Assembly (NCBI GenBank): GCA_963849155.1
Contig: CAWKGL010000003.1
Span: 32,123-96,122, forward strand
DNA: 64,000 bases
Reading direction: 5' to 3'
Origin: an uncultured Acidimicrobiaceae bacterium
GTDB taxonomy: Bacteria; Actinomycetota; Acidimicrobiia; Acidimicrobiales; RAAP-2
In this document: piece after piece, positions 40,747 through 45,098 of the stretch
Numbering within the stretch: the first letter of the stretch is position 1
How the letters are laid out: each line of letters opens with the position of its first letter
Made by a program: the position numbers and the translations under genes
Notes under the pieces: generated by a model
Seen by the model: only the letters and a program-made list of their open reading frames with translations
What the model was told of the DNA's origin: nothing
The model's database searches: none

Positions 40747-41484
40747 GTGGCGCGACTAGGCCTGGACTACCCGACCAAATGGGGCCGCAGCTACAGCGCA
40801 CGCTTCGTGCGCCACGTGTACCAGAGCTGCTTCCTGGTCCCCTACGCGAAGTACCTGTCAACGCTCGAGGTGCGCGGTACCGAGAACATCGCCGGATCCG
40901 GCCCGTTCATCTTCGCGGCCAACCACACGAGCAACCTCGACACGCCCCTGGTCTTGAGCGCCCTGCCGCTCGAACAACGCAACCGCACGGTCGTGGCGGC
41001 CGCGATGGACAACTTCTTCATGCGACCGCTGATCGCGTTCCATACGGTGTTGTTCTATAACGGCATCCCGATCGACCGGCACCGCGTGAACCGGCGCAGC
41101 GCCCAACAAGCCCTCGAACTGGTCGAGGACCATTGGAATTTGCTCATCTACCCCGAAGGCGGGCGCAGCACCAGCGGCGACATCCAGGAGTTCAAGGGTG
41201 GCGCCGCGTATCTCGCCGACCGCTCCAAGGCCGTGGTGATCCCCACCTACGTCCACGGCGCGGGCTACCTGCGCGCGCGCAAGTACGCCAAGGCGCCGGT
41301 GTTCACCGAGTCGCCCCCCGAGCGCCGACACCACGTCATCGTTGCCTTCGGACCCGCGTTACGCGTGGACGAGGGCGAGAACCTGCGACGCTTCAGTGCC
41401 CGAATCGAGAACGCGGTCATCGCACTCGGGCGCGAGGTGAGTGGCGACCCGCACTACGGGTCGCGCGAGGTCACGAGCGAATAG
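40747..41484 (+). CDS. Lysophospholipid acyltransferase (PlsC family)
   Basis: ANHTSNLD (HxxxxD) and IYPEGGRS. Confidence 0.88.
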   Translation: MARLGLDYPTKWGRSYSARFVRHVYQSCFLVPYAKYLSTLEVRGTENIAGSGPFIFAANHTSNLDTPLVLSALPLEQRNRTVVAAAMDNFFMRPLIAFHTVLFYNGIPIDRHRVNRRSAQQALELVEDHWNLLIYPEGGRSTSGDIQEFKGGAAYLADRSKAVVIPTYVHGAGYLRARKYAKAPVFTESPPERRHHVIVAFGPALRVDEGENLRRFSARIENAVIALGREVSGDPHYGSREVTSE

Positions 41485-42148
41485 CCCGGCACCGCTGCTC
41501 GTAGAGCAGGTCCGCGACGGACTCGAGGGGTTCGAGTTCGTAACCGAGCACCGAGGCGAGAATCGCGTCGGCGAACCAGGGGTTTTGTGCGAGTACCGGA
41601 CCGTGGGCGTAAGTCGCCCAGATCGTGTCGACGCGGTAACCGTCGTTCAGTCCGTCGTTTCCCTTTCCGTGTTCGACGCGACCGAGCGGCGCCACGCCGG
41701 CACCGAGCGTCGTGCGACCCCCGTGGTTCTCGAAGCCGACCAGCAGACGCGAGCCCACCCGCACGCGAAGTTCGCCCACTGAGCGCGTGGTCCCTCGCGT
41801 GGTCGTCACGTCGCAGAGTCCCAGGCCGGCGTACTGGTCGTCTCCCTCGACGCTGAAACTCGTGCCGAGGATCTGCAGACCCGCACAGACCGCCACCACG
41901 GTCGCACCGTTAGCCACGCGCTCGGCCAGTGACGTGCGCGCCAACACGTCGCGGGCGAGCCGTTGGGGACCGTCCTCTCCCCCACCGAGCAGGTAGATCG
42001 ACGCGTCGGGCAGGGCGTCGTGAAGACGCATGGCGCTCAGTACCGCCTCTTCGCCGCGCGCGCGGGCGCGCTGGGCGAGCACCACGGCGTTGCCCGCGTC
42101 GCCGTAGGTTCCGAGCAGGTCGGGCAGGATGTTCACGATCCTCAGCAC
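41471..42148 (-). CDS. gatD: Glutamine amidotransferase GatD (CobQ-like)
   Basis: LLGTYGDAGNA, LGGGED, VCAGLQILG, GFENHGG and TYAHGPVLAQNP; overlaps the murT stop. Confidence 0.9.
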   Translation of the reverse strand: MLRIVNILPDLLGTYGDAGNAVVLAQRARARGEEAVLSAMRLHDALPDASIYLLGGGEDGPQRLARDVLARTSLAERVANGATVVAVCAGLQILGTSFSVEGDDQYAGLGLCDVTTTRGTTRSVGELRVRVGSRLLVGFENHGGRTTLGAGVAPLGRVEHGKGNDGLNDGYRVDTIWATYAHGPVLAQNPWFADAILASVLGYELEPLESVADLLYEQRCRAIRS

Positions 42149-43356
42149 GGCACCGTCCTCGCGAGCCACTCGGAAAAGGCGGTGTAGTTCGCGATGAGCG
42201 GCACCGACTGCGCGTCCTCGGGTAACGCCTGCACGTCGTCAACCACGCGGTAGCTCACCTCGGCGTAGTGAAGCCTCGTCGCGAGGTCGAGGCGCCGGTC
42301 CCCGAGGCACCACACGAGGTGTCCGCGCAATTTCTCGAAGGGGACGTCGTAGAGCCACGAGGGGTCGTGACCGTCGGCGACTCGGGCGTTGATCGCGATC
42401 CACACGTCGCTCGCGTCGGGCTCGAGCGCGGACAACAAGGCGTCAAAACCCGCCGGGTTCTTCGCGAGCAGGAGACGCACCGTGCGTCCGCTCCAGCGTC
42501 GCAACGTGAAGCGACCCGCCACCGCCGCCACGTCGCTCATGCGCGCCAGGGCGACCACTGCGTCTTCGCCCACCTCGACGAGCGCGGTGAGCGCCATCGC
42601 GGCGTTCGCCTCGTTGAAGGCGCCGGGCAGCGCGAGCCTCATCTCGTGGCGCGTGCCCGCGATCACCAGACCGTCGACCAATGACGTTGTGACGACGGTG
42701 GGCTTGGCGAAACCGCACGAGCATCGCCACGTTCCACCGACGTGTTCGAGAGCGAGCGTGCACTGAGGGCACGAGCGCGCGTCGTCGAGCCAGGGCGTTG
42801 GCACGTCGCACCAACGGACGTTCGAGGCGTCGCTCGCCGCCCAGACCACGAGAGGATCGTTCGCGTTGGCCACGACCACGAGTTCGTCGTGACGAGCGAG
42901 CGCGTGGCGCCACCGGTCGGCCAATTTGCGAACCTCGTTGGCCCGATCGAGTTGGTCGCGCGAGAGGTTGAGTAACACCACCACCCTTGCCCCGACTTGC
43001 TCGAGGACCGAGCCCAGCCACGCCTCGTCCACCTCGAGCACGACGCGCGAGGACCGAGAACCCGCGAGGGCGGCCACGTGGCCTGGAGGCATGTTCGAGC
43101 CCGTCTCGTTGGTCACGACGTCACCCCCCCAACCAGCCGCGACGAGGGCGGTGGTCGTGGTCTTGCCGTTGGTCCCGCTCACCAGGATCGTCGAACGGCC
43201 TCGGGCGAGTGACGCGAGTAAATCGGGCGACAGGGCCAGTCCGAGCCGGCCCCCCGCTACCGTGCCCGCTCCGCGCTTGGCGGCCCGTGAAGCCCAATTC
43301 AGGCCCCGTAGGGCGGCGATAGCGACCCGATCGCGCAGTGAGGGGCCTTTGCTCAT
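42142..43356 (-). CDS. murT: MurT (Mur ligase family, DUF1727), lipid II isoglutamyl synthase subunit
   Basis: VSGTNGKTTTT, VLEVDE, LNLSRDQLDR, CPQC...WRCSCG zinc knuckle, LAKNPAG and DGHDPSWLYDV. Confidence 0.9.
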   Translation of the reverse strand: MSKGPSLRDRVAIAALRGLNWASRAAKRGAGTVAGGRLGLALSPDLLASLARGRSTILVSGTNGKTTTTALVAAGWGGDVVTNETGSNMPPGHVAALAGSRSSRVVLEVDEAWLGSVLEQVGARVVVLLNLSRDQLDRANEVRKLADRWRHALARHDELVVVANANDPLVVWAASDASNVRWCDVPTPWLDDARSCPQCTLALEHVGGTWRCSCGFAKPTVVTTSLVDGLVIAGTRHEMRLALPGAFNEANAAMALTALVEVGEDAVVALARMSDVAAVAGRFTLRRWSGRTVRLLLAKNPAGFDALLSALEPDASDVWIAINARVADGHDPSWLYDVPFEKLRGHLVWCLGDRRLDLATRLHYAEVSYRVVDDVQALPEDAQSVPLIANYTAFSEWLARTVPC

Positions 43357-43376
43357 AAGGTCACGCTAACAACCCG

Positions 43377-43419
43377 AAAAACACAAAAGGGCCAACCGGG
43401 GGGGTGGTTGGCCCTTTTG
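43377..43419 (-). terminator. Intrinsic terminator (second 6C hairpin plus U-tract)
   Basis: Perfect inverted repeat at 43384-43397 / 43406-43419, followed on the minus strand by TGTTTTT. Confidence 0.85.
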
Positions 43420-43465
43420 CAAAACCTCTGCCGTACCCAGAGGGGGGACTTGGCTACAGCAGGCT
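43377..43465 (-). ncRNA. 6C-type small RNA (two stem-loops with C-rich loops)
   Basis: Minus strand: stem CTGCTGTAGCCA/TGGGTACGGCAG around AGTCCCCCCTC, then a perfect 14-bp stem CAAAAGGGCCAACC/GGTTGGCCCTTTTG around ACCCCCCC, then TGTTTTT. It has its own -35/-10 and no ORF. Confidence 0.78.
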
Positions 43466-43471
43466 GGAACC

Positions 43472-43500
43472 AGTATGACCGGCGACGGTCTATCAATCAA
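43472..43500 (-). promoter_or_regulatory. Sigma70-type promoter of the small RNA
   Basis: TTGATT (43500-43495), a 17-nt spacer, then CATACT (43477-43472); predicted +1 near 43465. Confidence 0.7.
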
Positions 43501-43537
43501 GTGGATATTGGTGATATTTATTATCTATATGATTGAT
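43492..43537. promoter_or_regulatory. Two LysR-family boxes (ATC-N9-GAT)
   Basis: ATC-AATCAAGTG-GAT (43492-43506) and ATC-TATATGATT-GAT (43523-43537) both fit T-N11-A; their centres are 31 bp apart. Confidence 0.72.
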
Positions 43538-43539
43538 AC

Positions 43540-44478
43540 ATGGAGATTCGCCAGTTAGAGGCCCTCGTCGCCATCGCCGACCACGGCAGTTTCTCGAGCG
43601 CCGCCGAGGCCCTCGGCACGGTCCAGTCCAACATCTCGAACCGCATCGCTCGACTCGAGAACGAGCTCGCCACCGAGTTGATCGAGCGAGCGAGCGGAGC
43701 CCTGACCGAGTCGGGCGCGGTCACCGTCGAGCGAGCCCGTCGGGTGCTCAGCGAAGTCGCCGCGATCACCTCGGACGTCTCTGAACTCAACGCGGACATC
43801 CGCGGCAACGTGTCGCTCGGCATGATCGGCACGGCGGGTCGCTGGATCGTGCCGTTGTTGCTCGAGGCCCAGCGGGCCACCTACCCCCACATCGCACTTC
43901 GTATCACCGAGGGGACCAACTCGGTCATCGAGCCGCAATTGGTGAACGGCCAACTCGACATCGCGGTGCTCGCCTGGCCCGTGCTCGCGCCCGAACTCAC
44001 CGAGATCGACTTGTTCAGCGAGGACCTGGTGTTGATCGTGGCCAAGGAGCATCCCCTCGCGTCACTCCCCTCGGTGAGTTTCGCGACGCTCGCCAACTAC
44101 GAGTTGCTGCTGCCCTTTCCCGGCACGCCGATCCGACGTGAGATTGACGATTCGGCGCGCGCCCAAGGGGTCGAGCTCAAACCCGTCATCGAACTCGACG
44201 GGCTGCGCACGATCGCCTCGATGACCTTCGACGGGCACGGACCGTCGATCCTTCCCGCCACGATGCTGTCGCACCACCTGCGCGAGCGATTCGTCGCGGT
44301 GCCGATCGAACACATCGCCCAGCGCCGCGTCAGTCTGGTGAGTCGTCGATTCGGTTTTCCAGCCGCGCCGGTGCGCGCGATCCACGCCTTGCTCATCGAC
44401 GTCGTCAAGTCCGCCGTCGCGGCGCCCAAGGGCGTCTTCATCGCAACCGACCCTCCGAGCGCCACCGTGGCGCCGTGA
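43540..44478 (+). CDS. LysR family transcriptional regulator
   Basis: N-terminal wHTH (MEIRQLEALVAIADHGSFSSAAEAL...SNRIARLE) and a substrate-binding domain; the protein has no cysteines. Confidence 0.95.
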   Translation: MEIRQLEALVAIADHGSFSSAAEALGTVQSNISNRIARLENELATELIERASGALTESGAVTVERARRVLSEVAAITSDVSELNADIRGNVSLGMIGTAGRWIVPLLLEAQRATYPHIALRITEGTNSVIEPQLVNGQLDIAVLAWPVLAPELTEIDLFSEDLVLIVAKEHPLASLPSVSFATLANYELLLPFPGTPIRREIDDSARAQGVELKPVIELDGLRTIASMTFDGHGPSILPATMLSHHLRERFVAVPIEHIAQRRVSLVSRRFGFPAAPVRAIHALLIDVVKSAVAAPKGVFIATDPPSATVAP

Positions 44479-45098
44479 GTCTCTCGCGCCGGGACGTCGC
44501 GCGGCACATCGTGCGCCGCGACAAGGCGTTTCGCGACGTCGTGGCGCGCGCCGGACTCCCCCCGGCACGACGACGTGCTCGCGTGGACGAGCGCTTCGCC
44601 TATCTCGTTCGTTCCATCGTCTTCCAACTACTCGCCACGTCAGCCGCTGACACGATCCACGCCCGCGTCGTGGACGCCTGCGGGGGCTCGATCGACGTGG
44701 ATTCGATCTTGGAGACCGGCGCGGTCACCTTGAAGTCAGCGGGACTCTCGCGCACGAAGGCCGAGGCGATGATCGACCTCGCCGAGCACGTCCACGACGG
44801 AAGGGTGAGGATCACCCGTCACGGCTTCATGAGCGACGACGAGGTCCTCGCCGAGGTCACCGCCGTTCGCGGCATCGGCCCCTGGACCGCCCACATGTAC
44901 CTCATGCACACCCTGGGCCGCCCAGACGTGTGGCCCGTGGGTGATTACGGCGTGCGAAACGGGTGGAGCATCGTGCACGACCTTGACGACACCATCAGCG
45001 AACGAGACCTCACGGTCCTGGGAGACCGGTTCGCGGGCGTGCGCAGCGAGGTCGCCTGGTACTGCTGGCAGGCCGTCCACTTCTCGCGCGCCCGGTAA
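44475..45098 (+). CDS. alkA: DNA-3-methyladenine glycosylase II (AlkA, HhH-GPD family)
   Basis: LVRSIVFQ, GLSRTKA and RGIGPWTA.MYLM..LGRPDVWPVGD. Confidence 0.85.
   Translation: MSLSRRDVARHIVRRDKAFRDVVARAGLPPARRRARVDERFAYLVRSIVFQLLATSAADTIHARVVDACGGSIDVDSILETGAVTLKSAGLSRTKAEAMIDLAEHVHDGRVRITRHGFMSDDEVLAEVTAVRGIGPWTAHMYLMHTLGRPDVWPVGDYGVRNGWSIVHDLDDTISERDLTVLGDRFAGVRSEVAWYCWQAVHFSRAR

Follow-up and report, generated by a model that had tools for sequence, protein, structure and literature searches.

The 183-bp gap between murT and lysR (43357-43539) in a 64,000-nt stretch of DNA from an uncultured Acidimicrobiaceae bacterium (the window, whose positions serve as coordinates throughout) holds what is very probably a real small RNA (sRNA) gene. 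The gene lies on the minus strand, divergent from lysR; its RNA has a covarying structure of two hairpins with C-rich loops, its promoter and an upstream dyad are kept at fixed spacing, and its synteny with lysR extends across the order Acidimicrobiales. We read the locus as an independent sRNA gene that would be the proximal divergent target of the LysR protein, would be activated in response to a ligand, and would act by pairing of its C-rich loops. We put the probability of this whole reading, in which we infer the binding, the activation and the targets, at about 0.62.

A preliminary description of this locus, made from the sequence alone, had proposed a minus-strand unit with the promoter TTGATT-N17-CATACT, followed by an RNA of ~89 nt with two hairpins, C6 and C7 in their loops, and a U tract. 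All of these elements are present (Table 1), and the promoter, which looks to be of sigma-A type, is conserved in relatives. The fold of a 99-nt stretch comprising the sRNA reached -45.4 kcal/mol (z = -4.05), with none of 200 shuffles as good, and a terminator scan reported hairpin 2. The same description gave murT a -10 element of its own, so that the terminator would close a separate RNA; this agrees with the conservation of that leaderless-type -10 and with the covariation of the terminator. Both neighboring mRNAs look leaderless, TATGAT (lysR) and TAGCGT (murT) each standing 6 nt before the ATG. The two ATC-N9-GAT boxes that had been placed near -65 and across the -35 are likewise found, with centers at -65 and -34, and the distal one does cover the TATGAT of lysR, as had been claimed. 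The composite ATC-N9-GAT-N7-ATC-N18-GAT occurs only once in the 2.1-Mb genome; the plain ATC-N9-GAT occurs 698 times.

Within the genus, a DNA search of 60 relatives (the genus set being 37 genomes, including the window's own) found the sRNA locus as a single copy in 27 of the 37, at 77-91% identity; in other families the same search gave nothing convincing at the DNA level. The genus alignment from lysR to murT keeps the lysR start, box 1, the TATC half-site, TAT...TTGnnnGATA, CATACT and both hairpins. The sRNA -10 is CATACT or CATAAT in all 27 copies, the position of the lysR -10 reads TATACT, TATAGT or TATAAT in relatives, and TTAGCGT followed after 6-8 nt by the ATG of murT is retained in most copies. 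Runs of 5-8 C residues occur in all 27 copies and also in the order-wide relatives described below. Covariation, for which a check had been proposed at the outset, proved strong: RNAalifold gave 24 pairs, and compensatory changes were present at 12. The named structure was paired in 96.9% of cells and surpassed 500 of 500 shuffles in all five measures; as a control, sliding the partners by 1-3 columns lowered the pairing to 27-54%. The upper stem of hairpin 1 covaries at all six pairs around an invariant loop C-run (C6-7), and the terminator hairpin, which also covaries, is the best conserved part of the RNA. These findings support the sRNA as a putative separate minus-strand transcription unit with a conserved promoter and a covarying terminator.

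To reach further we used R1, a covariance model built from the genus copies. Another 80 LysR loci of the genus come from metagenome-assembled genomes labelled Acidimicrobiaceae or Acidimicrobiales, with peat, palsa, bog and fen as sources; in 78 of these loci the RNA lay on the strand opposite lysR, with model position 1 always 68 nt from the lysR ATG. A locus from a record named Ferrimicrobium sp. UBA6820 (L063), with 94% identity at LysR, had no R1 match, perhaps owing to masked or withheld sequence; its twin (L062) was matched.

Searching 301 Acidimicrobiales genomes with R1 under strict filters gave full-length matches in 55 of them, from 40 of the order's 185 genera. We took the 30 genomes with the best matches and located the best LysR orthologue in each; this orthologue (39-90% identity) was directly divergent from the RNA in 24. 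The divergent pair occurs in families f1, f69, f71, f41, f18, f72, f75, f31, f66, f61 and f27. We then aligned 19 intergenic regions from 11 families, and all 19 share one layout: ATC-N9-GAT, exactly 22 nt, T[TG]GAC[AT] then GAT, a spacer of 17±1 nt (16-19) and a -10 of the form nAnnnT. The GAT(A) straight after the -35 is invariant order-wide, and the left half of box 1 shares bases with the lysR ATG in most families (CCATC...). The synteny and box conservation that the preliminary description had wanted checked therefore extend, at invariant spacing, to at least 11 Acidimicrobiales families.

Copies of the RNA that lie away from lysR were found in f15 and f62. Six of the seven examined have the box at the same spacing, and the seventh has GCT instead of GAT in the box. 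Because the box is kept before RNA copies that have no adjacent lysR, it is part of the sRNA promoter, not an operator of lysR alone. The f15 genomes carry two tandem sRNA copies 1.7-2.3 kb apart, away from lysR (Table 1); ATC-N9-GAT stands upstream of one copy in G050 and one in G270, those examined. The number of C-loops also varies, and four relatives (L043, L045, L046 and L060, of f41, f18, f72 and f66) have three hairpins, each with a C-rich loop.

Table 1. Coordinates of the elements of the murT-lysR gap, of neighboring genes, and of related features in other genomes (contig or locus given before the colon)
Feature	Position	Strand	Remarks
Small RNA, ~89 nt	43465-43377	minus	Fold, covariation, R1 matches; U tract to ~43374
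Hairpin 1 of sRNA	43462-43428	minus	C6 loop 43447-43442
Hairpin 2 of sRNA, intrinsic terminator	43420-43383	minus	15-16 bp; C7 loop 43404-43398; then UUUUGUGUUUUU
sRNA -10, CATACT	43477-43472	minus	Spacer to -35 of 17 nt
sRNA -35, TTGATT	43500-43495	minus	Order-wide consensus T[TG]GAC[AT] then GAT
Box 2, ATC-N9-GAT across -35	43506-43492	none	Candidate activation site; center ~-34
TATC half-site between the boxes, ~-50	43513-43516	minus	Kept in the genus and most families
Box 1, ATC-N9-GAT dyad	43537-43523	none	Candidate LysR-type recognition site; center -65 from sRNA +1 (~43465)
Putative lysR -10, TATGAT	43528-43533	plus	Inside box 1; 6 nt ahead of ATG
lysR	43540-44478	plus	312 aa; Pfam HTH_1 (1.2e-17) and LysR_substrate (1.5e-39)
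murT -10, TAGCGT	43368-43363	minus	6 nt ahead of murT ATG; leaderless type
murT	42142-43356	minus	Pfam MurT_C and Mur_ligase_M (and GATase_3 for the murT-gatD pair); outside the conserved module
gatD	41471-42169	minus	Next after murT
Tandem sRNA copies, G050	C15:153908-154002 and 155644-155738
Tandem sRNA copies, G270	C97:100319-100413 and 102645-102739
HAD-IB+PlsC fusion in relatives	L055:1632-3056; L045:1606-3093; L047:1622-3028

The regulator has the domains of a LysR-type transcriptional regulator (LTTR), an N-terminal HTH_1 and a LysR substrate-binding domain. It reaches no NCBIfam equivalog cut-off; CynR (148 bits against 277) and OxyR (129.7 against 329) come closest, and its translation has no cysteine in 312 aa. 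An OxyR-type thiol or redox sensor is ruled out, since the protein lacks the redox cysteine pair and any cysteine at all, and falls so far below the OxyR equivalog. The gene downstream of lysR was considered as a clue to the signal and dropped, as it is not conserved (HhH-GPD here, a carboxyltransferase or citrate synthase elsewhere).

The geometry of the gap is that of LTTR control, in that the divergent promoters overlap and a T-N11-A dyad near -65 is joined by a further site near -35. ATC-N9-GAT fits T-N11-A, the classical LysR motif traced to Goethals et al. (PMC5002191), and the divergent layout that had been recognized beforehand matches oxyR-oxyS (sites at -66, -44 and -35) and gcvA-gcvB (-65 and -43) (PMC5002191). 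We propose that the LysR protein would bind the dyad at -65, which overlaps the leaderless promoter and start of lysR itself, so that binding there would cause autorepression. A second, weaker LysR site would overlap the -35, and with a small-molecule co-inducer bound LysR would activate transcription of the sRNA. The C-rich loops would then pair with G-rich mRNA segments, as those of 6C RNA do in mycobacteria. That LysR controls the sRNA, with binding and induction as just outlined, is in our view likely.

RNA evidence comes from Logan metatranscriptome contigs from soil and wetland, which are not strand-specific and represent relatives at 88-95% identity. Their coverage of the sRNA is a suggestive hint of expression: summed depth over the terminator hairpin was 430-1090 in two soil RNA runs, and one 163-nt contig has an Illumina adapter end at the equivalent of ~43463, beside the predicted +1. 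As to the mode of action, the 6C RNA of Mycobacterium tuberculosis acts via C-rich loops (PMC6486639), and pairing through the C-loops seems to us somewhat favored here too. A crude target scan, which looked for G6 runs ahead of plausible starts, gave 12% against 7% for a C6 control, with start calls too unreliable for the result to be used. A G7 run in the coding region of murT (43122-43130; GGGGGGGUG in the minus-strand mRNA) is a 9-nt perfect complement to loop 2 of the sRNA (CACCCCCCC), a match that may be due to chance.

The preliminary description had assigned the RNA to the 6C family and had proposed a check with its Rfam model (RF01066, gathering cut-off 47 bits). The model did not match at this locus at any threshold tried. 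A Rfam scan of the whole window at the gathering threshold gave tRNA only and no 6C, and a Rfam scan of 301 nt at the gap gave no 6C match at E <= 10. The sub-threshold Rfam matches on these 301 nt (ar7, mir-584 and ftsZ-DE) were all driven by the terminator. The best RF01066 score in the window's own genome, 21.7 bits, lies elsewhere, in a stretch that is coding-like by composition, and was rejected.

The RNA is nevertheless 6C-like. It has two adjacent stem-loops with at least six consecutive C residues per loop (C6 and C7) and its host belongs to the Actinomycetota, although the score stays below the gathering cut-off. Like 6C (B11 in mycobacteria, cgb_03605 in Corynebacterium glutamicum) it is ~80-90 nt long with tandem C>=6-loop hairpins and U residues after the second, and like 6C it is the sole such RNA in its genome; its linker is longer than that of 6C, and AU-rich. 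A LysR-adjacent relative with three C-loop hairpins (G230, f18) scored 40.9 bits over the full 6C model, on a scale where Streptomyces-like 6C copies reach only 43-48 bits in the same pipeline. Conversely, when 13 canonical 6C loci were searched with R1 without filters, the 6C was the best match in 13 of 13, at 14-21 bits.

Gene neighborhood may also link the two. A HAD gene (PF12710) lies divergent and upstream of canonical 6C in one Streptomyces-like and one Mycobacterium-like genome (L148 and L142). For the present RNA the usual next gene in many sister families encodes a 470-aa fusion of a HAD-IB hydrolase (TIGR01490, 148 bits) with a PlsC-type acyltransferase; it is directly downstream of the sRNA in 15 of the 30 order genomes and absent at the window locus and in its genus. 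The Streptomyces-like HAD and the HAD domain of the Acidimicrobiales fusion share 38% identity (8e-42). The HAD-IB neighbor of the sister families may thus lend support to distant 6C homology. The arrangement differs in that the HAD gene of 6C loci is divergent and unfused, whereas that of the present family is co-directional and fused to PlsC; in addition, the present RNA has no ssd/ParA-like gene downstream, unlike 6C, and none of the canonical 6C loci inspected shows a dedicated divergent LysR with its box.

Two sets of searches count against homology. R1 had no match in the six genomes sampled from other families of the class (f84-f87), and whole-genome searches with R2, an order-wide model, did not recover canonical 6C. 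Matches of R2 outside the order, in 201 genomes of the phylum, proved to be ordinary terminators lacking both the box and a C6 first hairpin, and we discarded them as false positives. Among sub-threshold Rfam matches the best were the ar7 and ar14 RNAs of Alphaproteobacteria (RF02342, RF02344), with 24.8 bits here and 42.2 and 40 in a relative, against gathering cut-offs of 60 and 58.8. Their hairpins too stand in tandem, with loops that are rich in C and anti-Shine-Dalgarno-like; these RNAs belong to another phylum, and the likeness is one of architecture only. We regard the RNA as 6C-like and probably a distant homologue of 6C, without being a scoring member of the Rfam family. A bolder version is doubtful, though worth stating: the RNA would be the Acidimicrobiales orthologue of 6C, with an ancient 6C-HAD-IB linkage and a dedicated ligand-sensing LysR that also governs HAD-IB+PlsC. 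If true, a 6C-type RNA would for the first time have a known signal input of its own, and the RNA would be tied to homeostasis of the lipid and peptidoglycan envelope.

A possible objection to our reading of the locus as an LysR-controlled sRNA gene is that the true target of LysR is a protein operon, ancestrally HAD-IB+PlsC and here murT-gatD, with the hairpins serving as a 5' leader or attenuator and the free sRNA as a by-product. A co-oriented gene does always follow within ~20-130 nt, and Rfam classes 6C as Cis-reg. Several observations of ours weigh against the sRNA reading in the same direction. The 163-nt contig of a relative continues beyond the terminator into murT. Of 21 sampled genomes with the fusion gene, 19 keep it inside the module: besides the 15 of 30 with the order lysR, sRNA, HAD-PlsC, there is one in which the sRNA is divergent from paired lysR and HAD-PlsC genes, and there are three (f62 and one f15 genome) in which HAD-PlsC is itself the immediate divergent partner of lysR and no sRNA intervenes. 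The gaps in these three hold an ATC-N9-GAT-type box (a degenerate ATT-N9-GAT in the f15 genome), and a hidden sRNA looked for upstream of lysR in f15 and f62 was not found, the start of HAD-PlsC being there instead. Other points against the sRNA reading concern its reach and its details: detection by R1 under strict filters was limited to the 55 of 301 genomes, LysR adjacency is missing in 6 of the 30, relatives do not keep the ATC that forms the left half of box 2 (they have only A-n-C or AT-n), and RF01066 failed to match the gap even at E <= 10. The generic sigma-70 scan did not report the sRNA promoter either (8 of 12 consensus positions, threshold 9), so that the case for this promoter rests on its conservation.

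Against a leader stands the terminator itself, whose 15-16-bp stem and U tract are the best conserved, covarying part of the RNA. The downstream gene moreover varies by family (murT, HAD-PlsC and others), and in other families a TAnnnT of its own stands 6-8 nt ahead of its start, an argument for separate promoters of leaderless type past the terminator. Box and promoter are kept at sRNA copies distant from both lysR and HAD-PlsC. The LysR-sRNA adjacency also persists in f1, G104, G106 and G135, which lack the fusion or have it elsewhere; the window's own genus lacks the fusion and has only split homologues elsewhere in the genome. As for murT, it adjoins the sRNA only in f1 and f71, is 1-1.7 kb off in f69 and elsewhere in f72 and f75, and was not found in six families in the neighbor survey. 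Since it is a neighbor in so few families, the RNA is not generally a murT leader, and we downgraded that idea as a general reading. We consider the protein-operon explanation unlikely. The preliminary description had held that the direct target is the sRNA and not a protein gene. The positive half of this agrees with LysR-sRNA being the most widely kept pair of the module; the exclusion of a protein gene goes too far for the family as a whole, given the place of HAD-IB+PlsC in the module and as the direct partner in three genomes. Because the same regulator is linked to this lipid-enzyme gene, the regulon in sister families probably comprises the sRNA and envelope genes. It might also be proposed that the box serves lysR autoregulation alone, or binds another factor, and that the sRNA promoter is constitutive. 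Box 1 does overlap the -10 and start codon of lysR in nearly all families, and the 6C of C. glutamicum has a strong housekeeping promoter with modulation by LexA and RamA and no dedicated regulator (PMC5014011). We find this improbable in view of the invariant 22 nt from box 1 to the -35 across 11 families, the box before sRNA copies that lack an adjacent lysR, and the invariant GAT half-site after the -35. Least probable of all is that no functional RNA exists and the hairpins are a mere terminator or insulator between promoters, their C-runs reflecting composition. One terminator-like site is indeed expected by chance in the region, and the R2 matches outside the order are plain terminators; yet there is a conserved promoter immediately ahead of them, hairpin 1 covaries at every pair of its upper stem beneath an invariant C-loop, relatives have two to three hairpins that are all C-looped, and their copies occur in RNA runs.

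An LTTR with a divergent sRNA target is a concept already known, and the present module, read as a LysR-controlled sRNA gene, is a further case of a known design. LTTR-sRNA pairs have been described in Proteobacteria: OxyR-OxyS and GcvA-GcvB (PMC5002191), and VtlR/LsrB-AbcR (PMC7486931, PMC8844928). In Escherichia coli, oxyR-oxyS and gcvA-gcvB have, as here, divergent overlapping promoters, a T-N11-A dyad at ~-65 over the regulator promoter, a site at the -35 and a short sRNA with an intrinsic terminator as target. The present system differs from them in its phylum, in an unrelated sRNA and in having no Hfq, and its LysR, without cysteine, does not reach the equivalog cut-off of either OxyR or GcvA. 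In the Rhizobiales, VtlR/LsrB and AbcR1/2 likewise pair a transcription factor gene with an adjacent sRNA that needs the factor (PMC7486931, PMC8844928), although the sRNA families differ. AbmR-Mcr11 of M. tuberculosis is reported to be another case of a transcription factor encoded beside its dependent sRNA (PMC7064933); AbmR is not an LTTR, and Mcr11 belongs to another sRNA family.

No dedicated regulator or input signal is known for 6C, a core mycobacterial sRNA that is widespread in Actinobacteria and has been suggested to be essential in M. tuberculosis (PMC9569102). In C. glutamicum it is driven by a SigA/SigB promoter that LexA and RamA repress; only these two and GlxR act there (PMC5014011). 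Our literature search found no paper joining 6C with LysR or with Acidimicrobiia, in line with the earlier remark that no LysR regulator of a 6C RNA was known to have been described. The LysR protein is thus the first regulator that can be proposed as dedicated to a 6C-type RNA, and the pairing is conserved order-wide. Having one regulator, one box and one sRNA as a unit across many Acidimicrobiales families makes the question of the input to 6C-type RNAs testable, and adds an actinobacterial example to the OxyR-OxyS/GcvA-GcvB design. An entire lineage of class rank escapes the Rfam 6C model, and the HAD-IB neighbor may provide synteny by which to trace 6C homologues that sequence models do not detect.

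Two further open reading frames of the window lie near the module. One (44475-45098, plus strand) encodes an HhH-GPD (AlkA-like) glycosylase; it has a GTG start and a 4-nt overlap with the lysR stop, and is probably co-transcribed with lysR. The other (40747-41484, plus strand) encodes a stand-alone PlsC-type acyltransferase of 245 aa, is convergent to gatD and lies ~2 kb from the sRNA; at 29% identity it may be unrelated to the HAD-PlsC partner of the sister families.

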